In this document: piece after piece, positions 2,831-52,928 of the stretch
Layout: each line of letters begins with the position of its first letter
Position numbering within the stretch: position 1 is the first letter of the stretch
DNA from: a virus
Taxonomy: Duplodnaviria > Heunggongvirae > Uroviricota > Caudoviricetes
Direction: 5' to 3' (one strand)
IMG/VR virus record: IMGVR_UViG_3300034104_004745
Coordinates: 1-64,000 of that record
DNA: 64,000 nucleotides
Position numbers and translations under genes: made by a program
Notes under the pieces: model-generated
Database searches by the model: none
The model's input: only the letters and a program-made list of their open reading frames with translations
What the model was told of the DNA's origin: nothing

Positions 2831-2832
2831 AT

Positions 2833-3234: not shown

Positions 3235-3244
3235 ATTGTTTTAT

Positions 3245-3556: not shown

Positions 3557-3721
3557 GGTTTTGTTGTTATGAGTTTCATATTATTTTATTTTAATTAAAA
3601 GATTTCCATACGGTATCAGAGATCTCCATACTTAATCCTAGATTATTTGTTATTAAAACCCCAAAATTTGTTTTTATTACTTTGGGATTACCGTTTATGA
3701 TTAACCCATTAGCGAATTTTA

Positions 3722-19731: not shown

Positions 19732-20208
19732 TTAATTTTCTTTTGATTTGTCCCATTTAGCTTTTCTTGCTTCTGGCGACAATTGAACATGCTCCTCTAT
19801 TGTATGAGGAATGTTAACCCTAACACATGTTTGTTGTAAACGGCAATTCATTAAATAGTTGTTTATATACCCCATCATGTTGGCGCTACCTATAGGATTT
19901 GCTGAATGTACATAAACTTGAGGAATGGGGATTCCTGTCTCAATACTTTTGTTTACTAACCATTTGCAGCAATCATAACCAGTTTTTTCTTGGATATTAG
20001 AATAATCTAATTGATAGTTGTTTCTAACATTTGTATAATATTCAGTCATCGCCTCATCACCTAAATCATGATCTAAAGATATTGTTTCAATATTCTCTAG
20101 ACCATGATACATAATAGTGCTTACAAACGCTTCGTAATCCCTAACTACAGTCCAACCCTCAACAGTAGGGGTTCTTACGTCATCTAAATAAATGCTTATT
20201 CTTTCCAT
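19732..20208 (-). CDS. Hypothetical protein (158 aa) with SLDHDLG and HSANP motifs.
   Basis: ORF. The motifs suggest an enzyme, but no family was identified. Confidence 0.5.
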   Translation of the reverse strand: MERISIYLDDVRTPTVEGWTVVRDYEAFVSTIMYHGLENIETISLDHDLGDEAMTEYYTNVRNNYQLDYSNIQEKTGYDCCKWLVNKSIETGIPIPQVYVHSANPIGSANMMGYINNYLMNCRLQQTCVRVNIPHTIEEHVQLSPEARKAKWDKSKEN

Positions 20209-23767: not shown

Positions 23768-24319
23768 ATGGGGATAAGCATTATTTTAACAGAGGCTCAA
23801 GTAGCTAACCTAGAGAAAAAAGTCGGTAAAATTGACCTAAACGAGTTCAACGTTTCGTTGTCTTGTACGAATATGACCTACGAGGCTTTAACATCTTTCT
23901 TAAACGGAAAAGAACAAAAGAAATTGGGTAACAACACAATAGTTCATATGATTAGAAACTGGGACACTAATGAAGAAGAGGTGGCAGTTAAATACTATGC
24001 CACAGATATTCTTAGTATTAATTCAGAAAATATTGTAACATTAAAAACCAATAACCATAATACAGCAACTACTAAAGCTAGATTAAACCAATTTTTAAGT
24101 TGCAGAGGCACTTACATATATCAAAAAAACCATGAGTGGTATATCAAAAATGAGATAGAAACTGTTGAATTTAGAGATGGTATACAAATTTTACCTGATG
24201 GTCAATTTCATATGCAAGGTCATATAGACCATAACAAAATACAAACGTATTTGGATAGGGCAAAATCATTGGATATTGATCCAAAATACAGAGAACTTTA
24301 TGGTTTATCTGACGATTAA
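23768..24319 (+). CDS. Hypothetical protein (183 aa).
   Basis: Plus-strand ORF in a divergent arrangement. Its 3' end overlaps the 3' end of 24316..27414. Confidence 0.5.
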   Translation: MGISIILTEAQVANLEKKVGKIDLNEFNVSLSCTNMTYEALTSFLNGKEQKKLGNNTIVHMIRNWDTNEEEVAVKYYATDILSINSENIVTLKTNNHNTATTKARLNQFLSCRGTYIYQKNHEWYIKNEIETVEFRDGIQILPDGQFHMQGHIDHNKIQTYLDRAKSLDIDPKYRELYGLSDD

Positions 24320-27300
24320 GATTTCATAGTAAACTTACTGTAATCACCGGTTTGGTGATTGTACTTATAAAATATATCTTGTAAGTTCTTAATGATATAG
24401 GTTTTACCTGAAAGATCTATTTTATTTAAAGTTACACCCTTAAATTGTGGATGTAAAACTACTTCACCATTTTGTTTAATCAACCCCCAAAGATTTTCTT
24501 CAGTTTTAACCGCAATATTACCGTTTTTGTCTATAGGACTATTTTCTACATATCTAGCCAAGAATGGAACAACATCGGTACACGAGAATATGGTTCTTTT
24601 AATACCTTTAGCTGATAATATATCAATGTGTTCTTGTTCACTAAACTTCCTAAACCCATGATCGATATACTCACAGAACATTGTGTAATATTCAAATAGA
24701 TCTTGTGAAATTTCTTTTAGACTATCAGTAAACATTTCTTTCATTTCTTCTTCAGATACATTATCAATTTTTCTGATCAACGCATCATTCATTTTAGAAC
24801 CGAAGAATGACATGAAATTTCTTTTAACATCACCACTAATCCTTCTAAAGTCATTTACAACTTTGAATATGGTTTTGTCATTAAACTTATCAGCGAACTC
24901 TTGACCCTTATCCATATCTGATGCTGTTTTTAATAGTTCAGCCTTGATTTCATTTGAATAGTTATCAAAATTTAATTCCCCACTAAGAATTGCATTAATA
25001 ATTTCTGGCCAACTACCTTTATCATTAATATTAAATCTTAATGCTGGGTTAGCATCATAAACTCTTTGTAAATTCTGTGGAGATAAATCTGATAATTGAA
25101 AATTATCACCATACCTATGAACACCTTGCGATGTTAATTGAGTAACCGGAAATCTAGTATTAATTAAGAAGTCAACAATTTGTGGGTGCAATCTCGATGT
25201 TGGTTTTTTATTACCGTGTCTATGGAAATCACCAAGAACACCACCTGGTCTGTAATCTACCGTTATCAAGGATTCACCTTCACCAAAATCATTTATACCT
25301 CTTAGTGATATTAACTTACTACCTGGTGTATTTGCTCTTGCACAGTGACCCATTCTTTCAGCTTCTTGAGAACAATAGTTTTTATGTAAGTTAACCCAAT
25401 AGTAACCAATACCTTTATCATTTCTATAATCAATAAACACATCACCCTTTTCAGTATAGTTAGATTCCTTTCTTGCTTCTAATGTATCATGCCATTCTTC
25501 TGCTTGAGTGTAAGCATCTTGAAATGACATTTGGCGAATGTTTAATTGCTCTCTTCTAGGCGCTCTAAACCAATGTAAAATATATTCATAGGCGCTCTTA
25601 TATCTTCGGTCCCAAACATTACTTCCCTCAGGCCCATCACTATTTAATAAACCAACAACGTATCTTTCTGGTTCTTCATCACTTGGTATTTGAGTTTCTT
25701 TAATGATTTCTTTTAAGAAACTACCAGCTATCCAAATCGATATCTTCTTACTTAACATATGGAACTCGTTTGCCCATTCATCGTTAAACCCTAAAACGTT
25801 TTTGATTGCTTGTCTCTTATCTGATTCAATTAATAACTCTTCAGCTAATGTGGTTGTTTGATTTCTGGTTTTTAATTGAGCATAGATCGGAGCATTCTTA
25901 TCTCTGATATTTCCAATTAACTTTTTTAAACCAGCTTCATATGTTCCCGCTTCAGCGTACGCATAACCATTTTCGTTTTTAAAATCATTAACCAAATCTG
26001 ATGCTGTTTTACCTTTTACAAGATATTTTCTAGCAATTAAATCATAGTAAAGATTTACACCATCTTTAAAACTTGCTTGTGGATTATCCTTTTTTGCTGT
26101 GTTACCAACATTAAAAGGATTTTTAGTTTTGATTGGTCTATCGTTAGGATTAGTACTAAGACCGCCCTCTAAAGTTAATTGAGCTAATGCCAATTCTGGT
26201 GGTACATATTTTCCATATCTCTTAAATACCCTTTCAGCAGCAACTGCCATCATCTCCCCACTCACTTGAGCACTAGGGTTTCTTAATCGAATAAAGTTGT
26301 CACATATTTTTTTATATGATTCAACACCTTCTCCAGTATTTAAATCTAAATCAGTAAAATCAATCGAACCTCCAGTTGTAACTGCAGGGTCAATATGTTT
26401 TTTAATATCGTCAGATGTAATATTTTTTGATTTTAAATCACTAATCAATTGTTTAACCATTTCTGTAGATATGGTTGCGCCGCCTAAAACAGTTTCAGAA
26501 TTTCCACTATCATAGTAGGTGCCGATAGATGAACCAAAATATTGCATTGGATCAACTCTTTGACCATTTTTCTTAAGTGTTAAGTGTAAGTGAGGTCCTT
26601 TTGAATTTCCTGAACCTCGAGCACCGACAGCACCTCCGGTTAATCCTATCACGTGACCTTGATTAATAACATCTCCAGTCTTTACATTTATACCAGATAA
26701 ATGACAATAACTACTTCTTAAGCCTTCAGCATGTTCGATTGATATACCATCACCACATCTTGAATCTAAAGAACCAGCAGCTATTACTTTACCATCTGCG
26801 ATTGCTTTAATTGGTGTACCAACTTTAGCTCCGATATCTATACCACCATGAATTCTATTTCCTCTTTTTTCATTAAAACCATGTCTAATATCACTTGTAA
26901 TTGGTACTGGTGTTATCAATACCATTTCATTTAGATCGGTAGCATTCGATTGGGCAGCAGCGTTTACTTCTGCTGTATCGTCATCAACAATATCTTTATC
27001 TTGTTTGTATTTGTTTACAGCCGCTGCTGTTTCTGGGCCAAATAATCCGTCAGTACCAAATTTAGGAAAACTGTAACCCAATAATTGTAAACCAATTTGT
27101 ACAGCTTCAACCCCTTGTTGTCTGGTCATTGAACCAAACTTTTGCTGTGTAATTGGAGATTTTATACTATCAAGTACCTTGTAGAAGTCATCAACATTAG
27201 CACTAATAAAATCTGCTTTATCTGCTATATCAGTACTTTTTTTCTCAACTGGAACATCTAATCCTGAAATAAAATCCTTAACTGCGTCAATTCCTTTATT

Positions 27301-27414
27301 TGCGTAATCCGCTCCTTTGGATATTAAATCATCCAAAACGTCTTCATTGATGTTCTCGTTTGAGAGTCTGCGTTTTAACCTTACAATCTGGTCTTCGTTA
27401 AATATAAATCTCAT
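24316..27414 (-). CDS. Multidomain peptidoglycan hydrolase (1032 aa): PG_binding_1-like domain, M23 zinc endopeptidase, a glucosaminidase-like domain and a roughly 500-aa C-terminal region of unknown function. Likely a virion-associated lysin.
   Basis: M23 motifs HGGIDIG...D and GPHLHL. PG-binding block GLFGPETAAAVNKYKQ. Glucosaminidase-like block AQLTLEGGLSTNPND...NPFNVGN. Confidence 0.75.
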   Translation of the reverse strand: MRFIFNEDQIVRLKRRLSNENINEDVLDDLISKGADYANKGIDAVKDFISGLDVPVEKKSTDIADKADFISANVDDFYKVLDSIKSPITQQKFGSMTRQQGVEAVQIGLQLLGYSFPKFGTDGLFGPETAAAVNKYKQDKDIVDDDTAEVNAAAQSNATDLNEMVLITPVPITSDIRHGFNEKRGNRIHGGIDIGAKVGTPIKAIADGKVIAAGSLDSRCGDGISIEHAEGLRSSYCHLSGINVKTGDVINQGHVIGLTGGAVGARGSGNSKGPHLHLTLKKNGQRVDPMQYFGSSIGTYYDSGNSETVLGGATISTEMVKQLISDLKSKNITSDDIKKHIDPAVTTGGSIDFTDLDLNTGEGVESYKKICDNFIRLRNPSAQVSGEMMAVAAERVFKRYGKYVPPELALAQLTLEGGLSTNPNDRPIKTKNPFNVGNTAKKDNPQASFKDGVNLYYDLIARKYLVKGKTASDLVNDFKNENGYAYAEAGTYEAGLKKLIGNIRDKNAPIYAQLKTRNQTTTLAEELLIESDKRQAIKNVLGFNDEWANEFHMLSKKISIWIAGSFLKEIIKETQIPSDEEPERYVVGLLNSDGPEGSNVWDRRYKSAYEYILHWFRAPRREQLNIRQMSFQDAYTQAEEWHDTLEARKESNYTEKGDVFIDYRNDKGIGYYWVNLHKNYCSQEAERMGHCARANTPGSKLISLRGINDFGEGESLITVDYRPGGVLGDFHRHGNKKPTSRLHPQIVDFLINTRFPVTQLTSQGVHRYGDNFQLSDLSPQNLQRVYDANPALRFNINDKGSWPEIINAILSGELNFDNYSNEIKAELLKTASDMDKGQEFADKFNDKTIFKVVNDFRRISGDVKRNFMSFFGSKMNDALIRKIDNVSEEEMKEMFTDSLKEISQDLFEYYTMFCEYIDHGFRKFSEQEHIDILSAKGIKRTIFSCTDVVPFLARYVENSPIDKNGNIAVKTEENLWGLIKQNGEVVLHPQFKGVTLNKIDLSGKTYIIKNLQDIFYKYNHQTGDYSKFTMKS

Positions 27415-27615: not shown

Positions 27616-27978
27616 TTATTTTTTAGTTTTATTGTGTGGTGTTGGGTTTCCGTGTTCGTCTACCGCAACAAATACTATTTTATCAATAACAGTTATTACT
27701 CGATGCGTATCCTTATTTCTAACAATACATTTTATTGTAATCGATGTTGTTCCTAGAGTAATCATTTCACAACCGATCTCAATTATATCCCCTAGCTTGG
27801 CAGATGCAATGAAATCAATTTCACTCATTACTTTTGTTACCACATTAGGTGTCCCCAATTGGCAAATACAATAGATTGCAGCCTCTTCATCGATCCACTT
27901 TAACAGTTGACCGCCAAATAGTGTACCTCTTGGATTTAGGTCTTCTGGTTTAATTAGTTTCCTTGTCCTGAATATCAT
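27616..27978 (-). CDS. Acyl-CoA thioesterase (hotdog fold, YciA/4HBT-like).
   Basis: The pattern NPRGTLFGGQLLKWIDE...VVTKV...GD.IEI...GTTS aligns with YciA-type thioesterases. Confidence 0.65.
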   Translation of the reverse strand: MIFRTRKLIKPEDLNPRGTLFGGQLLKWIDEEAAIYCICQLGTPNVVTKVMSEIDFIASAKLGDIIEIGCEMITLGTTSITIKCIVRNKDTHRVITVIDKIVFVAVDEHGNPTPHNKTKK

Positions 27979-28573
27979 CAGTTAAAAATTTTAAAATCTT
28001 TTCTTTAATTCCACTTTGTTTTATACCCTCAGATCCACGAGGCGTCTCAACAAAATTATCTAATCCCCAATTATGTACAAATTCCACACTATAATCCATA
28101 CCGGTTTTACCCATCCTTAAATCATCAATTGAAACCCAGTGAGTTATTTCCGGATGATCGTGTAGGTATTGTTTAATCTCAATACATCTGGTTTGTTCTA
28201 AGTCCCATTCGCGAGACCATGGAAATCCAGCTTTATAATCTTCAATATACCAGGTGCAATGACCGAGATTTGGTGTAAATGCTATAGGCTTCTTAATGAT
28301 ACCTTGTTGTTCATAATATTCACCCATCTGTTCAACACTAGCCCATCTCTTCCAATCTGAACTAACAACAATCTCAGCACCAGTTTCTTCTAAAATAGAA
28401 TTCAGTACTTTAATAGATTTGTCATCAAAGTCATCAAAACGATATTCCAAAGGAATTTCGTCATTAGTCATGGACAATTTACGTCCACCCCACTTTGCTT
28501 GTTTTTTAAAACGTCCACCCCAATTATTGGATAAACAAATCACACCATCGTGATCAAGAAATATTACTTTCAT
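27950..28573 (-). CDS. HAD-superfamily hydrolase (putative phosphatase or nucleotidase).
   Basis: Motif I FLDHDGV (DxDxV), motif II VVSSD, motif IV SIDD. Confidence 0.5.
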   Translation of the reverse strand: MKVIFLDHDGVICLSNNWGGRFKKQAKWGGRKLSMTNDEIPLEYRFDDFDDKSIKVLNSILEETGAEIVVSSDWKRWASVEQMGEYYEQQGIIKKPIAFTPNLGHCTWYIEDYKAGFPWSREWDLEQTRCIEIKQYLHDHPEITHWVSIDDLRMGKTGMDYSVEFVHNWGLDNFVETPRGSEGIKQSGIKEKILKFLTDDIQDKETN

Positions 28574-28892
28574 TTTTTCTATTTTTAAGTATTAATCTAA
28601 ATGTACTTAAAATACCTAAAAACATGAATAGTTGAACTGGCCAATATGGAAGATTTTGTAGTTCATGAAGCATCCAAAAGATGTTCATGTTAAGCCATGA
28701 TAAGAGAACTAAATTACTGTCTCTTAATTCTTTCTCCCTTATAAAAATGTATATTGCTAGAAGTAGAGTGGGTAAAACCATCACTGTAGCCATCCATGTC
28801 CATTTCAACGTCCAAAAAACGTCTTTAAGTAGCCACAAAATTACATGGATTTCATGAATATTCAAAATTTTTTTATGAGTTTCTTTCGACAT
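28554..28892 (-). CDS. Membrane protein (112 aa, 3 TM segments).
   Basis: Hydrophobic ORF. Confidence 0.45.
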   Translation of the reverse strand: MSKETHKKILNIHEIHVILWLLKDVFWTLKWTWMATVMVLPTLLLAIYIFIREKELRDSNLVLLSWLNMNIFWMLHELQNLPYWPVQLFMFLGILSTFRLILKNRKNESNIS

Positions 28893-29304
28893 ATTCTAAC
28901 TGAGGTGTCCAAACCCCTTCAGATATAACTTTAGGTGCCCCGTTTCTATCGATCATAACCCATTCATAATTTACAATTCCCCAAGGTTCGAATTGTTCAA
29001 TAACATCCTGAAGGGTAAAACACTTACAAGAATAGATATCAAATTGAGCCATAGCAGGTTCATGATGATCCCAAATATGTATTGAAGAATGTGATGTAGC
29101 TAAGGTAACCGTTCCAGTTAAACCCTCATTACCAGGGTAGTCAACATAAACACTGGTTGGTCCTCCAACCACTTCCATCTTTACTTTGTGAACTAAATCA
29201 ACAAACCATTTATTAAGAACATCCACCTCTTTTGGTGGATTTTTAACCCAGATCTTCATTAGAAGATGTTGATGATACGGAACGAATTCTTCCTGCATTT
29301 GCAT
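28873..29304 (-). CDS. Pyruvoyl-dependent decarboxylase of the S-adenosylmethionine decarboxylase (SpeH/AdoMetDC class 1) family.
   Basis: GTVTLATSHSSIHIWDHHEPAMAQFDIYSCK aligns with bacterial AdoMetDC [27 protein letters not shown], including the self-cleavage Ser. Confidence 0.6.
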   Translation of the reverse strand: MQMQEEFVPYHQHLLMKIWVKNPPKEVDVLNKWFVDLVHKVKMEVVGGPTSVYVDYPGNEGLTGTVTLATSHSSIHIWDHHEPAMAQFDIYSCKCFTLQDVIEQFEPWGIVNYEWVMIDRNGAPKVISEGVWTPQLEYVERNS

Positions 29305-36640: not shown

Positions 36641-36772
36641 ATGGCAAAAACAAAATCAGCGGGTAGCTCACAAAAGGTGTCTTTCGGGAAAAAAGGTAAA
36701 GGTAAAGCTAAGAAAAAATTCGGACCTAAAGAGCAAAAACCAAAAAGATATAGAGGCCAGGGTAGGGCCTAG
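36641..36772 (+). CDS. Small, very basic peptide (43 aa, MAKTKSAGSSQKVSFGKKGKGKAKKKFGPKEQKPKRYRGQGRA) on the opposite strand from its neighbours.
   Basis: ATG at 36641. The stop overlaps the stop of 36769..37251. Lys/Gly-rich, like nucleic-acid-binding internal proteins. Confidence 0.3.
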   Translation: MAKTKSAGSSQKVSFGKKGKGKAKKKFGPKEQKPKRYRGQGRA

Positions 36773-37671: not shown

Positions 37672-37920
37672 TTAATTACTTAACGGTATTTTTATTTTTA
37701 TAGTGATACCCGCACTACCTGCTGAAACATCATATGTGTTCTGTCTGTTATCGTTTATCCAACCATACTTATTAAATCTGAATATGATTACCAATTTACC
37801 TTCAAAAACAGCATAAATTGCGTTGTCTGCGTAATCTATTGATGGATGAATAATGTGTCCTAATTTCCAGGACTCTCTAAACTCTTCTTCTAATTCGTCG
37901 GGTGTTATGTGGATAAACAT
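37672..37920 (-). CDS. Hypothetical protein (82 aa).
   Basis: ORF. Confidence 0.45.
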   Translation of the reverse strand: MFIHITPDELEEEFRESWKLGHIIHPSIDYADNAIYAVFEGKLVIIFRFNKYGWINDNRQNTYDVSAGSAGITIKIKIPLSN

Positions 37921-37921
37921 G

Positions 37922-39052
37922 TTAATTGCTTAATGGCGCTTTTATTGCTGGATGTGATTGATAGTTTTCTAATATTACATCCTTATCACCAAATGAAAAT
38001 ATACCATCCATAACATATACTGTTGGTAGATCAAATGGTTCTCTTTTTATTTGTTCTTTGGCTTGTTCAATATGATTTTTATATAGATGAACATCCCCTA
38101 AGTTACCAATTAATTCATCAGGAACCATGTTCATTTCATCTGCAATCATTTTTAATAGTAAACCATATGATGCAATATTAAAAGGTAGTCCCAAGAATGT
38201 GTCCACAGATCTTTGGTTCCACATCAATGAGATAGCTCTTGTTGGTATATTGTGTTTAATCATTTCATCTTCAGTATAATATTGCGGAAGATTTTCCGTT
38301 AGACCTAATTTTTTATCCATTAAAAGAACTCTTTCAGTTTCATCTAAAACTCTTGTATAAACTTGAAATCCATAATGACAAGGAGGTAAAACCATTTGGT
38401 CTAATTCACCTACATTCCAAGCAGATACCATTAACCTTCTGCTATCAGGATTTGTTTTAAGCTCGTCGATTAGATTTTGAATTTGGTCAATAGTTTTATC
38501 ACCTTCAACGTATGTATCGTTTCCAGTTAATGGGTCTTTCAGTGTGGTTTTAATTAAAGTTTTGGTGTGCCATCCTCTCCATTGTGAACCATATATTGGG
38601 CCTAGCTCTCCCCACTCTTCTGCAAACCCATCATCAGTTTTAATTAGGTTGATAAATTCTTCTTGTGTTAACGGTTCTAAATCGTCTGGATTACTAAATA
38701 ACTTTTCAGTGTCATTATCCATACCCAATATATCTCCACACATATATCCATCAATAATTTCATTTATATATTTGGTATAGTTTTTATACGCGTCACCATT
38801 CCAAATGTTACATCCATTCATCACCAGATACTTGATGTTGGTGCTACCGCTTAAGAACCATATCAACTCAGTTACCATTGTCTTCCAAGCCATCTTCTTA
38901 GTTGTAAGTAATGGAAACCCTTGTGACATTTTATGACGAATTTGTCTACCGAAAACTGAAATAGTTCCAGTACCGGTTCTATCTGTTTTAACAACACCGT
39001 TATCTAAAATGTCCTGTAATAAATCTTGGTATTTACTATCTAATGTGTTCAT
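37922..39052 (-). CDS. thyA: Thymidylate synthase (ThyA family) with two lineage-specific insertions. The start is re-called to the ATG at 39052 (MNTLDSKYQDLLQDILDNG), which aligns with the ThyA N-terminus.
   Basis: The following motifs are present: TDRTGTGT.SVFG, ELIWFLSG.TN, LPPCH (catalytic Cys), LPFNIASY (Asn implies dUMP specificity), GDVHLYKNH and a C-terminal HPAIKAP. There are insertions of about 65 aa and about 30 aa relative to E. coli ThyA. Confidence 0.85.
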   Translation of the reverse strand: MNTLDSKYQDLLQDILDNGVVKTDRTGTGTISVFGRQIRHKMSQGFPLLTTKKMAWKTMVTELIWFLSGSTNIKYLVMNGCNIWNGDAYKNYTKYINEIIDGYMCGDILGMDNDTEKLFSNPDDLEPLTQEEFINLIKTDDGFAEEWGELGPIYGSQWRGWHTKTLIKTTLKDPLTGNDTYVEGDKTIDQIQNLIDELKTNPDSRRLMVSAWNVGELDQMVLPPCHYGFQVYTRVLDETERVLLMDKKLGLTENLPQYYTEDEMIKHNIPTRAISLMWNQRSVDTFLGLPFNIASYGLLLKMIADEMNMVPDELIGNLGDVHLYKNHIEQAKEQIKREPFDLPTVYVMDGIFSFGDKDVILENYQSHPAIKAPLSN

Positions 39053-39407
39053 ATAATCTTTTTTTATTTTCCCTTTCAGTATCGTGTGAGAATATTTCTT
39101 TATATCCAATAATTCGGTGAAATTCTTTGTATGCTTCAGGATGATAATTTTTTAAATGATCTAAACCATATTCATATTCAAATAAGGTTTGCTCATATCT
39201 TTTTTCTTTACTATCCCAACCATCTTCCTCATGTTCTTTATCAATAATTAATTGATTGATAAGATTTTGTAATGAATCTTCTTTACATGTGTTAATTGGA
39301 AGTGGTGGTGCAACCATATTGTCCGGTTTTCTAATTGCAACAAATGTTAAGACTATTATGATGAACGAACCAATAATAAGTCTAATAGCTGTGTCCTTAT
39401 TTTCCAT
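39036..39407 (-). CDS. Membrane-anchored hypothetical protein. The start is re-called to the ATG at 39407 (MENKDTAIRL).
   Basis: ORF with a TM segment. The track start at 39446 is upstream. Confidence 0.4.
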   Translation of the reverse strand: MENKDTAIRLIIGSFIIIVLTFVAIRKPDNMVAPPLPINTCKEDSLQNLINQLIIDKEHEEDGWDSKEKRYEQTLFEYEYGLDHLKNYHPEAYKEFHRIIGYKEIFSHDTERENKKRLYEHIR

Positions 39408-41010: not shown

Positions 41011-42369
41011 ATGAAGAAAAAAATATTATTGTTATCTGATGATTTAAGAATGTCATCGGGTATCGCTACTATGTCGAAAGAGATTGTGATGGGTACCATT
41101 CACAAATATGATTGGGTGCAGCTTGGCGCCGCAATTAAACATCCTGAGTTCGGTAAAATTGTTGACATAAACGATGATATCCGTAAGAGAACAGGTGTTA
41201 AAAACGCTAATTTAAAAATAATCCCTTACAATGGTTATGGTGATATTGGGGTTTTAAGAAAACTAATTAAGGAAGAAAAACCAGACGCTATTCTCCATTT
41301 CACCGACCCACATTATTGGCAGTGGTTATATGACAATGAGCATGAGATTAGACAACAAGTTCCATTATTGTTTTATCACATATGGGATGATTTGCCAGAT
41401 CCATTATATAATAGAAACTATTATGAAAGTTGTGATTGGTTAGGTTGTATATCTAAACAAACATATGGTATTGTTCATAGAGTTGGTAAATTAGAAAATG
41501 GTTCCACATGGAAACCTTTAGAAAATTGGCAGATCAAATATGTACCTCATGGTATTAACCCAGAAACATTTAAACCATTAGATAAAGTTTCAGATGAGAT
41601 AACACAACTTGTACACGGAGATAAGAAGTATGATTTTGTTCTTTTCTATAATAATAGAAATATCAGAAGGAAACAACCATCAGATGTTATCTATTCCTTT
41701 AAATTGTTTTGTGATAAACTACCAAAAGAAAAAGCTGATAAGTGTTTGTTATTAATGCACACAGCAGCTGTAGATGAAAATGGTACAGACTTACCTGCTG
41801 TTATTGAGGCGCTATGCCCATATGATGTTAAATTCACTGGATTAAAGTTAGAGCAAGATAAGTTAAACGAAATCTATAATCTTGTTGATTGTACAATTAA
41901 CATTGCTAATAACGAGGGATTTGGTTTAACTACTGCAGAATCGTTAATGTCTGGCACACCAATCATCGCTAATGTTACAGGTGGCTTACAAGATCAAATG
42001 GGTTTTGATTTCAGTGAAGATGATTATATTACAATTGGTTCATTACACCACAAGGGGAAATCTAGAAGTTTAGTTCAAGAGGGTGAATGGGTTGAAGCAG
42101 TTTGGCCTGCAGCAATTAATCTAAACGGATCTGTACCAACACCATACATTTTTGATGATCGAGTTAATGATGATGATGTTGCTGACGCTATTATGAAATT
42201 ATATAAAAGCGGAAGAAAGAAAAGAAAAGCAAAAGGATTAAAAGGTAGAGAGTTCATGATGAATAACCTATCAAATAAAATAATGTGTGATAAAATGATT
42301 GAGGGTATTGAAGATACACTTAAGAATTGGGAACCTAAAAAAAGATTTGATTTATATAAAATAGTATGA
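41011..42369 (+). CDS. Glycosyltransferase, family 4-like (GT-B fold).
   Basis: C-terminal NNEGFGLTTAESLMSGTPIIA matches the GT4 E-x7-E region. Confidence 0.7.
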   Translation: MKKKILLLSDDLRMSSGIATMSKEIVMGTIHKYDWVQLGAAIKHPEFGKIVDINDDIRKRTGVKNANLKIIPYNGYGDIGVLRKLIKEEKPDAILHFTDPHYWQWLYDNEHEIRQQVPLLFYHIWDDLPDPLYNRNYYESCDWLGCISKQTYGIVHRVGKLENGSTWKPLENWQIKYVPHGINPETFKPLDKVSDEITQLVHGDKKYDFVLFYNNRNIRRKQPSDVIYSFKLFCDKLPKEKADKCLLLMHTAAVDENGTDLPAVIEALCPYDVKFTGLKLEQDKLNEIYNLVDCTINIANNEGFGLTTAESLMSGTPIIANVTGGLQDQMGFDFSEDDYITIGSLHHKGKSRSLVQEGEWVEAVWPAAINLNGSVPTPYIFDDRVNDDDVADAIMKLYKSGRKKRKAKGLKGREFMMNNLSNKIMCDKMIEGIEDTLKNWEPKKRFDLYKIV

Positions 42370-43625
42370 GTAAACCGTTTTTATTATTTAGAGGGCCGGT
42401 ACAAACTAGAAGTGGGTATGGCGCGCATTCAAGAGACCTTTTACAGGCATTGTATGAAATGAATTCATACGATATTAAAATTGATAGTTGTTCTTGGGGG
42501 TCAACACCACTGACAGCATTAGAGAAAGATAATGTTTTTCATAAGTGGATTGAATCAAATATCATTTCATCATTAGCAATACAACCAGATGTGTATGTTC
42601 AAGTAACCGTACCAAACGAATTTCAAAGAGTTGGTAAGATTAACATCGGAATAACTGCTGGAATTGAAACAACTGTCGCACCTAAATCTTGGGTTGATGG
42701 TTGTAATAAAATGGATATGATTATTACTACATCACAATTTTCAAGTGAGGTATTAATGAGTACTGTTTACAATGAGACAGATAATGTTACAGGTAAATTG
42801 ATCAAACAACATAAGATTGAAAAACCTATAAAGGTTCTTTTTGAAGGTGTTCATAATGACATATTCAATAATGAATATAATGATATTGATTTGAATATCA
42901 ATGAAGATTTCGCATACCTTTTTGTTGGCCATTGGTTGAAAGGTAATTTAGGCCAGGACAGAAAAGATGTGGGTATGTTAATTAAATGTTTTGTTGAAGC
43001 ATTTAAAAATGAAGAAGATAAACCAGCATTGATTCTTAAGACTTCATCAGCAACTTTCTCAATAAAACAAAGAGAAGACTTTGCTAAAAAGATAAAAGAG
43101 CTTGTTGGAAACATTGAGAACCCTCCATCGATTTATCTATTGTTTGGTGAATTAACAGATAAAGAAATGAACAATCTTTACAATCACCCTAAAATTAAAG
43201 CAATGATTAGTCTCACCAAAGGTGAGGGATTCGGTAGACCTTTATTAGAATTTACTATGACTGGTAAGCCTGTGATCGCATCTAACTGGTCGGGGCACAA
43301 AGACTTCTTACCAATGGATAAAGGGATTATGATTGGTGGTAAACTAAATGAGGTAGATGAAAGCGCTATTGACGACTTTATTTTAAAGGGTTCAAAATGG
43401 TTTACAGCAAATTATAATGAAGCCGCTGAAGTTATGAAGATTGTGAAGAGCGACTATCAAAAGTTTTTAGATCGTGCTGAAAATCTGAGAATAGAGAATT
43501 CAACTAAGTTTAGTTTTCAGAGAATGATTGAAGAATTTGAAAAGTTATTACCTAAAACAGTTTCACAAGAAGAATCACCAAAACAAAAACCAATTAATTT
43601 ACCTAAATTAAATAAAATAAAATAG
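42366..43625 (+). CDS. Glycosyltransferase, family 4-like (GT-B fold).
   Basis: KGEGFGRPLLEFTMTGKPVIASNWSG GT4 motif. 4-nt overlap with the upstream GT. Confidence 0.7.
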   Translation: MSKPFLLFRGPVQTRSGYGAHSRDLLQALYEMNSYDIKIDSCSWGSTPLTALEKDNVFHKWIESNIISSLAIQPDVYVQVTVPNEFQRVGKINIGITAGIETTVAPKSWVDGCNKMDMIITTSQFSSEVLMSTVYNETDNVTGKLIKQHKIEKPIKVLFEGVHNDIFNNEYNDIDLNINEDFAYLFVGHWLKGNLGQDRKDVGMLIKCFVEAFKNEEDKPALILKTSSATFSIKQREDFAKKIKELVGNIENPPSIYLLFGELTDKEMNNLYNHPKIKAMISLTKGEGFGRPLLEFTMTGKPVIASNWSGHKDFLPMDKGIMIGGKLNEVDESAIDDFILKGSKWFTANYNEAAEVMKIVKSDYQKFLDRAENLRIENSTKFSFQRMIEEFEKLLPKTVSQEESPKQKPINLPKLNKIK

Positions 43626-43626
43626 A

Positions 43627-43923
43627 ATGGCTAAGAGTAAAACAAAAAAACCGTGGGTGGTTGACTCTATGTTTAGATTAGAAGCACCACAAAGTGCTAG
43701 TTTCATAAGCATACCAAATAATGGAACCTTTAAAGATTGTGAATGGTGTTTTCAATTTGATGATAGTGACCCATTTGTATTCGCATCAACAAAACCTTTT
43801 TATGATGGGAAAGACGCTAAAATAAGTTTCACACTTACAAACCAAACAAACACAAATTTGGTCTTTAAAGACTCTAATACCGGCAAAGAATTTAAAATAT
43901 TCGCAAGAGAAAAACAGTTATGA
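43627..43923 (+). CDS. Hypothetical protein (98 aa) within the glycan operon.
   Basis: ORF with tight coupling (1-nt gap upstream, 4-nt overlap downstream). Confidence 0.45.
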   Translation: MAKSKTKKPWVVDSMFRLEAPQSASFISIPNNGTFKDCEWCFQFDDSDPFVFASTKPFYDGKDAKISFTLTNQTNTNLVFKDSNTGKEFKIFAREKQL

Positions 43924-44543
43924 AAATCAGTTTCGCAATCACAGTATGTAATGAATTAGAAGAAATTAAAAAGTTGGTTCCCTTCTTAATAGAAAACAAG
44001 AGAGCCAATGATGAAGTTGTTATTTTATTTGATAGTAAAAATGGTGATGACCAAGTCATAGATTATTTGTTGCAGTTTAATAAATTACCAAATGTACAAA
44101 CCTGGAAAGGATTTGATTTCAATAACGATTTTGCGGAATGGAAAAATAAGTTAAATGAATATTGTACTGGTGATTATATTTTTCAATTAGATGCTGACGA
44201 ATTAATAAATGAGTATATGGTTAAAAATCTACATGAAATTATCGAATCAAATGAAGAGATCGATTTATTCTTTTTACCTAGAATCAATACAGTAAAAGGA
44301 ATAACCGAAGAGCACATAAGAAGATGGAGATGGAATGTGGATGATAATGGCAGAGTTAACTTCCCTGATTACCAGGGTAGAATATATAAATCTAATTTAA
44401 AATGGGGCGGTAAAGTGCATGAAAGAATTGTAGGTGCTAAGTTTTATTCTTTGTTACCAACAGAAGAAATCTATTCGCTATCACACCATAAAACAATTAG
44501 TAGACAAGAAAAACAAAATGATTATTATGAAAACATTAAATGA
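43920..44543 (+). CDS. Glycosyltransferase-like protein (GT-A/GT2-like, DxD motif DADE).
   Basis: N-terminal FAITVCNE and QLDADE resemble GT2. Weakly supported. Confidence 0.4.
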   Translation: MKISFAITVCNELEEIKKLVPFLIENKRANDEVVILFDSKNGDDQVIDYLLQFNKLPNVQTWKGFDFNNDFAEWKNKLNEYCTGDYIFQLDADELINEYMVKNLHEIIESNEEIDLFFLPRINTVKGITEEHIRRWRWNVDDNGRVNFPDYQGRIYKSNLKWGGKVHERIVGAKFYSLLPTEEIYSLSHHKTISRQEKQNDYYENIK

Positions 44544-45069
44544 GATTTATGAAAAGTATCAATCACCGGAAGGTCATGGTGATAAAGGAACAGCACACAC
44601 ATACATAGATGAGTATGAAAGATTGTTAGCCCCATATAGAAAAAACTCAATCGTTCTTGAAATAGGTTTGTGTGAGGGTGAGTCGATGAGAATGTGGGAA
44701 GAATATTTTATCGATTCAAAAGTTATTGGTGTTGATATCGATAGTAGATACTTGATTAGTTTAATTAACGAGCCTGGACATAATATTATTATTGCTGACG
44801 CAACTAAAAATGATATTGTAGATAAGATTGATGAAAAAATGTTTGATGTTTTAATTGATGATGGTAGTCATAGATTAGCTGATCAGTTAAGCACATTTCA
44901 AATTTTTAAAAATCGAATTAAACCTGGTGGTATCTACATTATAGAAGATGTTGTCGAATTAGATCGAGTAAAAAATATCTTCTTAGGACTTCACAATAAC
45001 GTAGAAATTATCGATAATAGACATATAAAAGATAGACACGATGATGTGTTAATAGTATATAAATTTTAA
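44518..45069 (+). CDS. Class I SAM-dependent methyltransferase (Methyltransf_24/CmcI-like sugar O-methyltransferase family).
   Basis: DKGTAHTY...SIVLEIGLCEGESMRMW (motif I), then VIGVDID. The start is re-called to an ATG at 44518 or 44527. Confidence 0.6.
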   Translation: MIIMKTLNEIYEKYQSPEGHGDKGTAHTYIDEYERLLAPYRKNSIVLEIGLCEGESMRMWEEYFIDSKVIGVDIDSRYLISLINEPGHNIIIADATKNDIVDKIDEKMFDVLIDDGSHRLADQLSTFQIFKNRIKPGGIYIIEDVVELDRVKNIFLGLHNNVEIIDNRHIKDRHDDVLIVYKF

Positions 45070-45072
45070 ATT

Positions 45073-46068
45073 ATGAAAGTATTAATTACAGGTATTGCTG
45101 GACTACTAGGTTCCAGATTAGCAGATTACATCGTTGAAAATCATCCGGACGTTCATATAGTTGGTATTGATGATTTGAGTGGTGGGTATTATGAAAACAT
45201 TAACCCTAAGGTTCCGGAATTTAGAAAATTAAATTTAGTTACAGGTGATTTAGAAAGTTGCTTTGAGGAACATAAATTTGATTACGTCTATCATTTTGCA
45301 GCATATGCTGCTGAAGGGTTGTCACCATTTATTAGACAATACAATTATGAGAATAATTTGGTTGCTACAGCTAGAATAATTAACCAGTGTATTAAACACG
45401 AAGTAAAAAGATTAGTTTTTACTTCAACAATGGCGGTATATGGTCATGGTAATGGTAATATATTTGATGAATCTCAAATACCTCAACCGATAGATCCATA
45501 TGGTATTGCGAAATATGCGTGTGAAATGGATATTCAAGTTGCTGGTGAACAGCATGGGTTAGATTGGTGTATCATTCGTCCACATAATGTTTATGGTATT
45601 AAACAAAACATCTGGGATAAATACAGAAATGTGTTAGGTATTTGGATGTATCAACATATGAATGGCGAGCCAATGACAATCTTTGGTGATGGTGAACAAA
45701 AAAGAGCATTCAGTTATATTGATGATTGTTTAGATGGTTTGTGGAAAGCTTCTCAATTGCCACAATGCTCAAAGGAAGTTATTAATCTTGGTGGAACAAA
45801 ACATTACACGATCAATGAAGCTAACGCAGTATTAAAGCAAGTAATCAAAGATGGTGAAACTGTTTATAAAGAACAAAGACACGAAGTTAAAGCTGCCATA
45901 CCAACTTGGGCGAAATCTGTTGAGCTACTTGGTTATGAAGACAAGACATCTTTATATGATGGTTTAAAAACCATGTGGGAGTGGGCACAGAAACAACCTA
46001 ACAGAGAAAGATTTGTATGGGAATCATATGAATTAGATAAAGGAATTTATAGCTTTTGGAAAAAATAA
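45073..46068 (+). CDS. NAD-dependent nucleotide-sugar epimerase/dehydratase (extended SDR).
   Basis: Rossmann GIAGLLGSRL (GxxGxxG) and catalytic YGIAK (YxxxK). Confidence 0.8.
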   Translation: MKVLITGIAGLLGSRLADYIVENHPDVHIVGIDDLSGGYYENINPKVPEFRKLNLVTGDLESCFEEHKFDYVYHFAAYAAEGLSPFIRQYNYENNLVATARIINQCIKHEVKRLVFTSTMAVYGHGNGNIFDESQIPQPIDPYGIAKYACEMDIQVAGEQHGLDWCIIRPHNVYGIKQNIWDKYRNVLGIWMYQHMNGEPMTIFGDGEQKRAFSYIDDCLDGLWKASQLPQCSKEVINLGGTKHYTINEANAVLKQVIKDGETVYKEQRHEVKAAIPTWAKSVELLGYEDKTSLYDGLKTMWEWAQKQPNRERFVWESYELDKGIYSFWKK

Positions 46069-46072
46069 GAAT

Positions 46073-46654
46073 ATGAAAAAAATAGAATTTATTATCCCAA
46101 CGTATAATAGACCAGATAAATTAATGGTTATGTTATCATCAATAAAAGCACAATCTGTTGATTTATGGAAAGTGCATGTTGTTGCTGATGCTGTATATGA
46201 TGGGTATCAAGAAATAAAAGATTACTTTAAAAATGATGAGAGATTTATATTCTCTGAATTAAATGGCCCACACAAAGATTGGGGGCACACAGCTAGAAAC
46301 TATGGCTTAGAAAGAGCAGAAGAAGACTGGGTGGTGATGTCTGGTGACGATAACTATTATGTACCAATTTTCGTTGAGGCTTTTTTAGAATCGATTAAAT
46401 ATAGAAAAGATGTTAACTTTGTTCATTGTAACTTAGTACACAATTGGATTAACAATGAATACATCGGGTTATTATCAAGACCTCAAGTAAATGGTATTGA
46501 TATTGGTAACTTTATGACTAAAACAAAATTTGCGAAACAGATGAGATTAGATGTTACTAAAGTAAACGCTGACGGTATCTTTGTAGAAGAATACCTAGAA
46601 AAATTTAAGGGTAACATTATTCACATTCAAAAAATATTATATGTCCATAACTAA
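46073..46654 (+). CDS. Glycosyltransferase family 2 (GT-A fold).
   Basis: N-terminal EFIIPTYNRPDKL is the canonical GT2 start. SGDDNYY region. Confidence 0.6.
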   Translation: MKKIEFIIPTYNRPDKLMVMLSSIKAQSVDLWKVHVVADAVYDGYQEIKDYFKNDERFIFSELNGPHKDWGHTARNYGLERAEEDWVVMSGDDNYYVPIFVEAFLESIKYRKDVNFVHCNLVHNWINNEYIGLLSRPQVNGIDIGNFMTKTKFAKQMRLDVTKVNADGIFVEEYLEKFKGNIIHIQKILYVHN

Positions 46655-47762
46655 CATAACATTCGTTCTTGCTGTACTTGATAAATTAGATTTAACTAAG
46701 AACTGTTATTCTAGAATACGAGATCTATATCCCACCACACCATTTGTTATAAGTAGTGGTGGTTCAAGTGATGGTACAAAAGAATGGTTGTTAGAAATGT
46801 CCGAGAAAGATGAGAACCTAACAATTTTTCATGATGATGATAGGTTAGCATTTTCAGAAACTTACAACTCAGGAATCAAAATGGTCGATACCGAAAAATT
46901 AGTTTTGATTCACAATGATATGGTTATTGGTGAGGGGTTTTTAGAAGCTATAGAAAGGTTATTAAAACCAAATATGATGTTATCCTATACAACAATAGAA
47001 CCACCAATTTTTAAAGGACATCAAAGACCCGGAAAGGTATTAATTGATTTAGGTTCATCGTTTGATGATTTTGATTATTTTAATTTCAATGCGTATGTTA
47101 GTACACATAACAATAACGATGTTCTATATGATGGCGCAGTTTTCTTTATGAGTGGTTACAAAAAGATGTTTGAAGATGTTGGTTTTTTTGATGGGTTTAG
47201 CTTTGTACCTTGTTTCTGTGAAGATGATGATTTCATAATCAGGGCTAAGTTAAAAGGATATGAATTAAAAACTTGTGAGTCCGCGATCGTATATCATTTT
47301 GTTTCCCAAACGTCTAGATTTAGCGAAGAGTTTAAGAAAAATAGAGTTACCCATGAGGTTTCATCTATTAGAAACTTCGTAAGAAAATGGGGGATAACTA
47401 TAACTGTCTTTAATGAGCTACGCTACTGGGAAGAAAAAGAATTTAAGTATAAAACATTTTCAATGGGATTAATTACAAGAAACAAAAAAAGATTAATGGA
47501 TCTTGAACCGTTTTTTGATAAGATTGATCTGGGTGAAATACCTGAAGAATATATTGAGAATGAGCAAAAAAGAACTAGATACGATATTAGATCTAAATTT
47601 ACATTAACAGATACTGTGGATGTTGTTATAACTGAGGTTGATGAATTTACTGATGAAGATCTACAGACATTACGTAGACTAAGATTATCTATACCATATT
47701 ATGAACCAGGTGAATACCAAATAGGTAATATGTTGATACAAATAAAAAAGGAGCTTAATTAG
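46641..47762 (+). CDS. Glycosyltransferase family 2-like protein (373 aa).
   Basis: FVLAVLDK...YNSGIK...LIHNDMV architecture like GT2. Weaker match than 46073..46654. Confidence 0.45.
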   Translation: MSITNITFVLAVLDKLDLTKNCYSRIRDLYPTTPFVISSGGSSDGTKEWLLEMSEKDENLTIFHDDDRLAFSETYNSGIKMVDTEKLVLIHNDMVIGEGFLEAIERLLKPNMMLSYTTIEPPIFKGHQRPGKVLIDLGSSFDDFDYFNFNAYVSTHNNNDVLYDGAVFFMSGYKKMFEDVGFFDGFSFVPCFCEDDDFIIRAKLKGYELKTCESAIVYHFVSQTSRFSEEFKKNRVTHEVSSIRNFVRKWGITITVFNELRYWEEKEFKYKTFSMGLITRNKKRLMDLEPFFDKIDLGEIPEEYIENEQKRTRYDIRSKFTLTDTVDVVITEVDEFTDEDLQTLRRLRLSIPYYEPGEYQIGNMLIQIKKELN

Positions 47763-50903: not shown

Positions 50904-51927
50904 ATGATTTTTTCTTATGATCTGCAACAATATCACAGTAATTACAATCCCAACATTGGAATTTACATTTCTTTATTTTATTTCTCCAACCCTTAAGTTC
51001 TTCGTGTGGTATACCATCCAAATATATCTCAGATGTTTTAGATAAAACACTTTTACCCGCAGCGTACGAATCAACAATCTCCATAGTTTCATCTAATCGA
51101 TTGAAGCTATCTCTACCATGCATTTTGAATACATCAATATATTCTAAGAATTCGTCAAACTCTTCTTTGAATGGTGGTATAGTTCCTGTCTTAAAAAAGA
51201 AAGCATTAATATCTTTCTCCCATTTGTGTTCACAAGTTACTTTAGAGATCTCGTGATGAAAGTATGGTAACTCATTATTAGTTCTAAGATTGTTATATGA
51301 ATAATGTTCATCCATGACTGGGCACCTTCCTAAACAACCTTCATTAACTAGTAATGATATTTTTACATATCTACCTTTCTCTTCGTAATATTTTAACTGA
51401 GCTCTTTTGATATTTTTTAATTCTTCAACATCTCTCATTAAAATCCTATCAAGATTAATGTAATCAAATCCTTGATCGGCGTTATACCAAAAGTCTTGTC
51501 CAGTTGCCACTTTTCTTAATATGGTATTTTTAATTTCCATCTCTGGAAAATGTTTCTTCAATCCCATTGCAACCCAATGACCATGTGGAATAGTTATACA
51601 TCTTAAACCCTTTTCGTATAAAGGTTTTAGATTATCAATAAACAATTTATAGTTATCGAATCTAGGAGAAACGTTTATGTTGTTGAATGTTGCACTGATG
51701 GAGATACCTAATGCTTTTTGAATGATCATTGCATTATCAAACACAATGTCTCTGTCTTCATCTCTGAACACCGCACCCATCGCATCTTGTGTAAATGGTG
51801 GGACTCTACAGGTAAAATAAATGTCATATATCCATTCCTTATTTCTTTCTAAGAACGGATAAAATTTATTCATGAACATATCTTCCGACATCATCGGATT
51901 AAGTGGTATAGAGAATATCTTTTTCAT
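50890..51927 (-). CDS. Cys-rich protein (345 aa) with a C-terminal CKFQCWDCNYC cluster; possible Fe-S or zinc partner of the adjacent radical SAM enzyme.
   Basis: EGCLGRCP and CKFQCWDCNYCD motifs. 1-nt overlap with the radical SAM gene. No canonical CxxxCxxC. Confidence 0.5.
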   Translation of the reverse strand: MKKIFSIPLNPMMSEDMFMNKFYPFLERNKEWIYDIYFTCRVPPFTQDAMGAVFRDEDRDIVFDNAMIIQKALGISISATFNNINVSPRFDNYKLFIDNLKPLYEKGLRCITIPHGHWVAMGLKKHFPEMEIKNTILRKVATGQDFWYNADQGFDYINLDRILMRDVEELKNIKRAQLKYYEEKGRYVKISLLVNEGCLGRCPVMDEHYSYNNLRTNNELPYFHHEISKVTCEHKWEKDINAFFFKTGTIPPFKEEFDEFLEYIDVFKMHGRDSFNRLDETMEIVDSYAAGKSVLSKTSEIYLDGIPHEELKGWRNKIKKCKFQCWDCNYCDIVADHKKKSYGLS

Positions 51928-52928
51928 TATTTGTTACCTTCTAGACATCCACCACATATACCATTACAATCGCTCTTATAAAAGACACAATCTAAACAGT
52001 CTTGCGGTATAGTATAATTTTTATGATTATCGGTGTAAAGTTTATCAAACTCATCCCTTAAATCTAATATACCACTTTTAGCTGATATTTCCAAAACATT
52101 ATCAATCTTTACCTTATCTTGTAGTGGATAACAATGAATTGAACTTCCATCCGGGAAGACATCCAGTGGCATAAATCCACATATAGTATCATATTCAGGG
52201 ATTTTAAATGTTGCAAAGTTCAAAGAATTTTCTAAAACAGCTTTCTTTGTTTTACCCTCCCATAAACATGGCGGAACTTGACAATCTGAAGTGATCTTAA
52301 TACCGTTATATAAGCCGAATTTAAGGATCTTAGTAATCTCTGCACCCATTTCCCTATTATTGATAAGATAGGTCCCTGTGAGGTCTAATCCGACCCTTAT
52401 TGCGTTTATTTTACCATCAAGCTCGTGGTATAACCATTTGATGTATTCATAGAAGTTTCTATCCTTCCAATCTTTGGACATCGTTACAGCTAAATAAAGT
52501 CTAGGATTAGTATCAAACCCCCAGGTATTGGCATATGCTTTGTAAATTTCTAGGTAGTTCTTTTTAAATAAAACTATTCTATTTTTTTCATTAAGCTCTG
52601 CAGCATTAGGAAACACCCAGCGGATATTTTTGATATTTTCTATTAGATAATCTCTTGTTGTTTTACTAAACAAAAAATTACTAACAAGATTCACCTTAAT
52701 ATTTTTAGAAAAGAGGTGATCCAAAATACCAATAAAATTTGAATGCTGTGTTGGTTCCCCACCTAGAATTGTTATTTCTTCTTGGGGTGATTGTAAATTA
52801 TAATGGTTGATAAGTTTATCAACCATTTCTATTGACATTTCGCCTAAGGTATGTTTTAGTCTTGCGTCTTCTTTGGTGAAGCAGAATGAACATCCTTTAG
52901 CACATGTACCATTAATTGCTAAATTCAT
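51927..52928 (-). CDS. Radical SAM enzyme with a C-terminal SPASM-like Cys-rich domain.
   Basis: CAKGCSFC (C-x3-C-x2-C), the GGEPT SAM-binding motif, and C-terminal CLDCVFYKSDCNGICGGC. Confidence 0.75.
   Translation of the reverse strand: MNLAINGTCAKGCSFCFTKEDARLKHTLGEMSIEMVDKLINHYNLQSPQEEITILGGEPTQHSNFIGILDHLFSKNIKVNLVSNFLFSKTTRDYLIENIKNIRWVFPNAAELNEKNRIVLFKKNYLEIYKAYANTWGFDTNPRLYLAVTMSKDWKDRNFYEYIKWLYHELDGKINAIRVGLDLTGTYLINNREMGAEITKILKFGLYNGIKITSDCQVPPCLWEGKTKKAVLENSLNFATFKIPEYDTICGFMPLDVFPDGSSIHCYPLQDKVKIDNVLEISAKSGILDLRDEFDKLYTDNHKNYTIPQDCLDCVFYKSDCNGICGGCLEGNK

Follow-up and report, generated by a model that had tools for sequence, protein, structure and literature searches.

The 64,000-nucleotide (nt) stretch analysed here (positions 1 to 64,000 of the Caudoviricetes record IMGVR_UViG_3300034104_004745; hereafter, the window) carries a member of the ThyA-type thymidylate synthase (TS; EC 2.1.1.45) family. 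We consider it highly probable that this gene encodes a functional, homodimeric, folate-dependent synthase of deoxythymidine monophosphate (dTMP) from a phage-borne clade, in which surface inserts (here termed A, B and C) leave the product chemistry unchanged; activity and dimer formation are predicted from family membership, conserved residues and fold. Nothing indicates that the enzyme synthesizes a modified base. An uninterrupted minus-strand open reading frame (ORF) covers 37922–39109, and the 376-amino-acid (aa) gene that a sequence-only reading had drawn within it is real (stop codon at 37922–37924). An alternative TTG start at 39109 would give a TS of 395 aa; the ATG at 39052 is the likely start, because most TS homologues open with MNTLD or MNxxD. 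The first 17 nt of the gene are shared with the upstream ORF 39036–39407, at its end, and the ORF at 37672–37920 opens one base past the TS stop, which together place TS within a tightly packed minus-strand run.

The 376-aa product matched Pfam PF00303 (1.1e-95) over profile positions 2–265 of 266, scored 314.8 bits against the NCBIfam TS equivalog TIGR03284 (cutoff of 108.35, exceeded about threefold) and 331 bits against NF002496, which describes a 318-aa 'long' TS type (cutoff, 325). Together with the residue alignment described below, these matches bear out the earlier assignment to the ThyA family. As controls, Escherichia coli ThyA (455 bits), the TS of Flavobacterium phage vB_FspM_immuto (immuto; 312 bits) and the TS of Salmonella phage SPN3US (360 bits) passed TIGR03284, and SPO1 gp29 (58.2 bits), T4 gp42 (30.6 bits) and Det7 gp108 (37.1 bits) failed. 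NCBIfam cutoffs were used as the discriminator because PHROG membership fails to split TS from T4 gp42 (phrog_160 holds both). BLASTP of the window TS gave 4e-70 for E. coli ThyA, 0.004 for gp29 and 3e-4 for gp42. SPO1 gp29, its counterparts in the ViI-like phages Det7, S118 and PhiSH19 and those of several Pseudomonas phages of ~62 kb form a gp29-like group, whose members are validated or likely hydroxymethylases of deoxyuridine monophosphate (dUMP); Det7, S118, PhiSH19 and these Pseudomonas phages are related to phages known to hypermodify DNA through derivatives of 5-hydroxymethyldeoxyuridine (5-hmdU). The window TS falls outside this group, with a local match of 33 bits to the gp29 family phrog_5131 (gp29 itself, 456 bits).

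A dUMP hydroxymethylase with a folate site remodelled by the inserts, in which the exocyclic methylene intermediate would be hydrated instead of reduced to start a 5-hmdU or hypermodified-thymidine pathway, is very unlikely given these scores. Such an enzyme would agree with the retained Asn292, which keeps dUMP as the substrate, and with the position of insert A in the TS 'small domain', the extent and structure of which are highly variable and which contributes to the cofactor site (PMC6479881). It would also agree with the radical-SAM protein and the acetyltransferase encoded in the window, as such enzymes occur in some thymidine-hypermodification clusters (PMC8989533). However, these two genes lie ~13 kb and ~30 kb from TS, the elements for hydride transfer and closure are kept (W84, L222, Y154 and a full-length C-terminal tail), and the companion gene set of the hmdU pathway (dTTPase/dTMPase, dCMP deaminase, 5-HMUDK and aGPT-Pplase; PMC8989533) had no member among the ~50 window ORFs in a Pfam scan. 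The premise of the sequence-only reading, that insert-bearing TS paralogues of phages include hydroxymethylases, is itself weak: the 383-aa gp29 aligns to TS-type profiles only over about residues 6–230, so that its extra length is mostly C-terminal and not at the insert sites of the window TS, and gp42 is only 246 aa long. With the equivalog cutoff passed by the window TS and failed by gp29, gp42 and Det7 gp108, and with insert A representing a known small domain and inserts B and C elaborating two hairpins (see below), the suggestion that the inserts point to hydroxymethylase chemistry is not supported.

We compared 33 key positions with E. coli ThyA by profile alignment; all 33 were identical or conservatively changed, save E82G and W83D (E. 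coli numbering), and three C-terminal residues were among the conservative changes. The catalytic Cys225, followed by His226, corresponds to C146 and H147 in PPCH, Asn292 to N177 in LPFNIASY, and His322/Tyr324 to H207/Y209 in GDVHLY, so that every motif listed in the earlier reading is present. The phosphate-binding arginines R25, R205, R206 and R281 are retained (E. coli R21, R126′, R127′ and R166), as are S282 (S167), the equivalent of E. coli Q165, and the residues of the folate and closure region (E62, I83, W84, Y154 and L222 for E58, I79, W80, Y94 and L143; D284, L287, G288 and F291 for D169, L172, G173 and F176). The C-terminal tail, KAPLSN, is equal in length to the E. coli KAPVAI. At the W83 position, the window TS has Asp and the validated T4 TS has Asn (read from td exon 1).

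Positions 177 and 147 are the two that marked cytosine-modifying TS homologues in a metagenome association study, in which Asn177 and His147 were the states tied to unmodified DNA and the cytosine-modifying homologues had Asp177 (PMC8670742). The retained Asn292, with His226, thus indicates dUMP as the probable substrate, which supports the argument that had been made from the Asn. By the same residues, a methylase or hydroxymethylase of deoxycytidine monophosphate (dCMP) like T4 gp42, feeding a pathway to glycosylated hydroxymethylcytosine through the nearby glycosyltransferases, is extremely unlikely, and the BLASTP match to gp42 was only 3e-4. In its favour are the seven sugar-cluster genes, five of them glycosyltransferases, within 2–9 kb of TS and the T4 precedent, in which gp42 is paired with a beta-glucosyltransferase. 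However, the glycosyltransferases of the window are of GT4 and GT2 types, stand with a nucleotide-sugar epimerase and a methyltransferase and are encoded on the opposite strand.

These genes occupy 41011–47762 on the plus strand (two GT4-type and three GT2-type enzymes, an S-adenosylmethionine (SAM) methyltransferase and an NAD-dependent epimerase/dehydratase) and are transcribed divergently from the run that contains TS. The order glycosyltransferase cluster, DUF192, small ORFs, TS, small ORFs, NlpC/P60 and PcfJ-like gene is conserved in four related contigs, and in one relative the cluster gains a UDP-galactopyranose-mutase-like gene, typical of glycan synthesis. The block is a sugar-nucleotide/glycan cluster and not a DNA-base pathway. 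The link that the sequence-only reading had drawn from glycosyltransferases to 5-hmdU is therefore not supported, as they form a separate, opposite-strand sugar cluster and no hmdU-pathway genes were found among the ~50 window ORFs scanned. In phage immuto, the closest cultured carrier, the DNA of which is predicted to contain 7-deazaguanine, genes for this base (QueC/D/E/F and DpdA) and a thymidylate kinase lie within ~8 kb of TS, and no thymidine-modification genes were found in that ~8-kb region. Insert-bearing TS is a common, uncharacterised phage variant of an ordinary enzyme. For annotation, the NCBIfam equivalog cutoff and positions 147/177 cleanly split TS from hydroxymethylases, and long insert-bearing phage TS should be annotated as dTMP synthase and not taken as a marker of hmdU- or hmC-containing DNA.

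Features of the TS gene and of selected other genes in the window (coordinates in nt of the window; residues numbered from the ATG at 39052)
Feature	Position	Strand	Details and basis
Thymidylate synthase CDS	37922–39052	−	376 aa; Pfam PF00303, NCBIfam, AF2 model, Foldseek
Insert A, enlarged small domain	38609–38800 (residues ~85–148)	−	+56 aa after NIW; MAFFT, AF2
Insert B, beta-hairpin extension	38495–38563 (residues 164–186)	−	+19 aa; MAFFT, AF2
Insert C, helical module	38234–38353 (residues 234–273)	−	+36 aa after PCHYGFQVYT; MAFFT, AF2
Catalytic Cys225 codon (E. coli C146 in PPCH), followed by His226 (H147)	38378–38380	−	Alignment, residue table
Asn292 codon (E. coli N177 in LPFNIASY), pyrimidine-specificity residue	38177–38179	−	Alignment; role according to PMC8670742
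SAM methyltransferase	44518–45069	+	In glycan cluster
NAD-dependent nucleotide-sugar epimerase/dehydratase	45073–46068	+	In glycan cluster
Radical-SAM protein	51927–52928	−	~13 kb from TS; auxiliary metabolic gene
GNAT/ESCO-like acetyltransferase	8331–8831	−	~30 kb from TS; auxiliary metabolic gene
S-adenosylmethionine decarboxylase-like protein	28873–29304	−	Auxiliary metabolic gene, away from TS

As judged from residue conservation and from what is established about TS catalysis, Cys225 would add to C6 of dUMP, which would be held by Arg25, Arg205′/Arg206′ from the partner subunit, Arg281, Ser282, Asn292, His322 and Tyr324. The resulting enolate would attack 5,10-methylene-tetrahydrofolate bound by Ile83/Trp84, Asp284, Leu287/Gly288/Phe291 and the C-terminal KAPLSN tail; proton abstraction, probably aided by Glu62, Tyr154 and His226, and hydride transfer from the cofactor would then yield dTMP and dihydrofolate. 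The product would supply replication of an A+T-rich genome (window G+C, ~32%; A+T, 68%). In the predicted structure, insert A would enlarge the small domain, which forms a cap over the folate site, insert B would lengthen a beta-ribbon and insert C would form a helical module in the hairpin that follows the catalytic strand. Most likely, the inserts serve stability or phage-specific protein contacts and leave the chemistry as it is.

Several points weigh against this interpretation. Two departures from E. coli ThyA, an Asp in place of W83 and a tail that ends in LSN instead of VAI, touch the folate and closure region. Genes for DHFR, dCMP deaminase and dUTPase were not seen among the ~50 ORFs of the window by Pfam, so that the surrounding nucleotide pathway is not visible; the scan for pathway genes covers 64 kb of a contig of about 199 kb, and modification genes may lie elsewhere on it. 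TSs with insert B or C are known from sequence and predicted structure alone, and we infer the placement of these two inserts relative to the active site and the dimer interface from topology.

Alignment (MAFFT) with E. coli and Staphylococcus aureus TS resolved three insertions relative to the 264-aa E. coli ThyA. Of the two noticed earlier, both are real and correctly located, past NIW and past PCHxxFQVY, but they measure +56 and +36 aa instead of ~65 and ~30 aa; insert B (+19 aa) had been missed. The boundary of insert A is ambiguous by ~7 aa. An AlphaFold2 (AF2) model from a 136-sequence alignment (predicted local distance difference test (pLDDT), 96; predicted template-modelling score (pTM), 0.93), which superseded an earlier run from 45 sequences that were ≥77% identical (pLDDT, 57), predicted all three inserts with high confidence as ordered structure. 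Insert A was modelled as four helices (residues 85–104, 113–116, 130–139 and 141–147) and aligns with the small-domain insert of ~50 aa in the S. aureus, Enterococcus faecalis and Lactobacillus casei TS (4dq1, 3uwl and 1lca; 315–321 aa), which leaves only ~55–60 aa extra over a known TS type. Insert B was modelled as a long two-stranded ribbon (strands 161–172 and 179–188), and insert C as a helix (238–248), a loop and a second helix (261–266). Insert C is located in the hairpin that joins the strand opening with the catalytic Cys to the one terminating in Q-R-S; from the strand order of the TS fold, the tip of this hairpin would lie at the end of the sheet opposite to and far from the active site. 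It is flanked by YTRVLDETER and IPTR in the window TS and by YTRELS/TxxER and (I/V)P(K/T)R in the wider clade, with a hypervariable middle. Inserts B and C were absent from every solved TS aligned, none of which aligns over residues 234–273. Foldseek returned the E. faecalis, L. casei and S. aureus TS as the best matches (E ~1e-34; TM-score 0.84–0.92, normalised to target length), and viral predicted structures include further long TSs, such as a 457-aa protein of phage 201phi2-1. An intron or other RNA origin was tested and rejected: no Rfam family or intron was found in or around the gene (no Rfam match within the window reached the gathering score, and none over the TS gene was credible).

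To characterize the evolution of the inserts, we compared the window TS gene with three relatives, taking insert values within the same allele. The ratio of nonsynonymous to synonymous divergence (dN/dS) was 0.026–0.081 for the core (dS, ~1–1.3), 0.013–0.136 for insert A, 0.012–0.060 for insert B and 0.041–0.094 for insert C. All three inserts are under purifying selection and are thus translated, constrained protein and not drifting loops. An allele survey of 121 close relatives (P0001–P0120 and the window; cores 84–96% identical) revealed six versions of insert A, 17 unrelated alleles of insert B with lengths of 6–44 aa (the shortest being effectively no insert) and two main versions of insert C, the 37-aa form of the window TS, in 14 proteins, and a 45-aa 'PFGGGLSE' form in 105. 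These occurred in 29 combinations, including all four of B0/B5 with C0/C1. The region surveyed for insert B corresponds to window residues 162–187 (nt 38492–38569), and the allele of the window is 96% identical even where the core is only 84% identical. In one gene pair, third-codon-position identity was 0.40–0.50 in the core, where the protein sequences agree at 100%, 0.85–0.95 over insert A and the C terminus and 0.20 in insert C; this unevenness shows that the TS genes are recombination mosaics. Modules of the C type are found in a further loop as well, which is bounded by EQIGR and EPFxLP and designated site D. A 'NYETGME' module is found at site D in P0124, P0183 and P0247 and at site C in P0128, P0265 and P0141 (best pairs 61–64% identical over 44 aa; E ~1e-18 in a small database), and the 'PFGGGLSE' module is found at site D in P0012 and at site C in the immuto TS (L001:7992–9263) and the window family (50–52% identity over 40 aa; E ~1e-12 in a small database; shuffle z = 19.7). 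In some TS proteins, both loops are occupied, by different modules. The sharing of modules between sites C and D may reflect a docking function usable from either loop, or plain duplication.

One explanation, which competes with that given above only over the role of the inserts, is that the enzyme is a normal TS in which selection maintains inserts B and C as interaction cassettes, and not as passive loops, that dock phage partners or escape a host factor targeting TS, and that discrete alleles are kept and shuffled for that reason. We regard this as possible but less likely than not. It is consistent with within-allele dN/dS of 0.01–0.09 at dS 0.8–1.8 (as slow as the core), with the numbers and combinations of B and C alleles, with the swings in third-codon-position identity (0.20 to 0.95) along one gene pair, with C-type modules at a second loop in other proteins and with ordered predicted structure. 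However, no interaction partner was identified and the inserts are without experimental precedent; the hypervariable middle of insert C in the wider clade would also fit a mainly structural excursion, and recombination among diverged lineages alone can yield allele mosaics. In a more specific and somewhat more doubtful form, which we put forward tentatively, the insert-C module of ~40–50 aa would be a selected autonomous cassette that has moved at least twice between two TS surface loops and is swapped with insert B by recombination, likely for a phage-specific interaction (for example, binding to a complex for nucleotide synthesis or replication, or evasion of a host factor) and not for catalysis. 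For protein evolution, whatever the role of the inserts, the clade combines a very strongly constrained core enzyme with discrete, individually conserved surface cassettes, which are freely recombined and can be housed in one or the other of two loops.

The same modules could instead be footprints of a selfish in-frame mobile element, similar to the Rickettsia palindromic element (RPE) and tolerated in surface loops, which we judge quite unlikely. Module families of ~45 aa shared by two TS loops (at the E values and shuffle score given above), a 6-nt direct repeat (ACAAGA) that flanks the window insert C and a relative in which the TS gene contains a GIY-YIG endonuclease-like ORF in a gap of ~1 kb are in line with such an origin; the last suggests that the locus attracts mobile DNA. 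However, the 64-kb window holds no second copy of an insert at the DNA or peptide level, and when three modules were searched by tblastn in 50,697 phage records, the immuto TS was the sole match, if there was any. The inserts do not differ from the core in G+C, are under strong purifying selection and were modelled as ordered structure; the ACAAGA repeat is short, and relatives differ in the residue encoded by it (T or K). A module search of a 5.8-billion-protein collection, limited by the word index, returned one 64-aa fragment. An RPE-like origin, for which multiple copies in unrelated genes would be expected, is not supported: in the cultured phages searched, the modules were found only in TS genes. 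In the relative with the gap (L027:2007–4220, binned as Saprospirales), the related TS gene is split past ...NAWNVADLP by ~1 kb that contains a 296-aa ORF (2729–3619), GIY-YIG homing endonuclease-like by eye, a layout suggestive of a mobile intron like that of T4 td but at another position.

Among TSs of known structure, the window TS is closest in sequence to the long ThyA (NF002496) of L. casei, E. faecalis and S. aureus (1LCA, 3UWL and 4DQ1; 1e-70 to 1e-73, the best matches among solved structures), with which it shares the helical small-domain insert past NIW and all catalytic and binding residues. It differs in having ~6 more small-domain residues and in inserts B (+19 aa) and C (+36 aa). 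Insert C has counterparts in proteins of cultured phages that are annotated as thymidylate synthase. In the 423-aa immuto TS, it occupies the same hairpin between the flanks YTRELxxxER and IPxR, and insert A is also present; this protein differs in its longer 'PFGGGLSE' allele of insert C and in the presence, at site D, of a fourth insert, which is 45 aa long. In the TSs of SPN3US-like jumbo phages (338–369 aa), insert C occupies the corresponding hairpin between flanks like those of immuto; the SPN3US TS differs in its E. coli-like core, the lack of insert A and a different insert B. No biochemical characterisation of the immuto or SPN3US-like TS was found in the literature. The validated phage TS of T4 (td; 1TIS) has in common with the window TS the segment ELIWFLSGSTN, the interface strand W-x-QRSVD and the lack of Trp at the W83 position; unlike the window gene, it has no insert at the C hairpin and contains a group I intron. 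The hydroxymethylases gp29 and gp42 share the PF00303-like fold superfamily and conserve the catalytic Cys, R-S-x-D and H-x-Y, and gp29 is similarly long (383 aa). In contrast to the window TS, both align to TS profiles only centrally, lack the TS C-terminal tail and fall below the TS equivalog cutoffs; gp42 has Asp179 at the E. coli N177 position, where the window TS has Asn292, and gp29 belongs to a separate PHROG family (phrog_5131).

Insert-bearing relatives are abundant in metagenomes: more than 120 proteins of 356–441 aa are 72–100% identical to the window TS, with PF00303 as the sole Pfam domain and some on contigs of up to ~320 kb. Among the 150 best cluster representatives at 50% identity, insert A is present in 139, insert B in 51, insert C (≥15 aa) in 121 and an insert at site D in 14. 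Cultured phages with insert C are immuto (TS 55% identical) and SPN3US-like jumbo phages, and no description of these inserts in jumbo-phage or SPN3US TS was found in the literature. Across 185,579 species-representative genomes of bacteria and archaea, long TS relatives were restricted to a handful of contigs from metagenome-assembled genomes (MAGs) or single-amplified genomes, and the remaining cellular matches were ≤43% identical and 260–306 aa long. Given that the cultured carriers are phages and that the long cellular relatives are few, the clade looks phage-borne. Two GTDB MAG contigs with an insert-bearing TS, L013 (254 kb) and L015 (248 kb), were binned as Bacteroidetes/Flavobacteriaceae. 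L015 ('Flavobacteriaceae') also encodes homologues of the DUF192 gene and the 465-aa ORF of the window, and looks like a binned phage because of these shared neighbouring genes; both contigs are probably jumbo-phage genomes that were binned with their host. The host of the window phage is probably a member of Bacteroidota/Flavobacteriaceae.

Further features were observed elsewhere in the window. GC skew is positive at 40–48 kb and negative elsewhere, with sign changes at ~40100 and ~47800; these coincide with the plus-strand glycan cluster, matching the switch in transcription strand. A 43-aa, extremely basic ORF (MAKTKSAGSSQKVSFGKKGKGKAKKKFGPKEQKPKRYRGQGRA; 36641–36772, plus strand) lies between the NlpC/P60 and PcfJ-like genes on the opposite strand to them, and three related contigs (L007, L009 and L011) have a gene of 42–44 aa at the same place and in the same orientation. 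Four minus-strand genes have a counter-defence or RNA-repair flavour: a 2H-phosphoesterase/Acb1-like gene (12686–13225), ArdC-N with an M78 peptidase (16840–18081), a cREC_REC cyclic-phosphate receiver (19732–20208) and HAD_SAK_2 (27950–28573). Also on the minus strand, a 1,951-aa coiled-coil protein with a BppL_N-like motif (57895–63750) is probably a fibre or baseplate component, and a 1,032-aa protein (24316–27414) combines an M23 peptidase with a peptidoglycan-binding domain.

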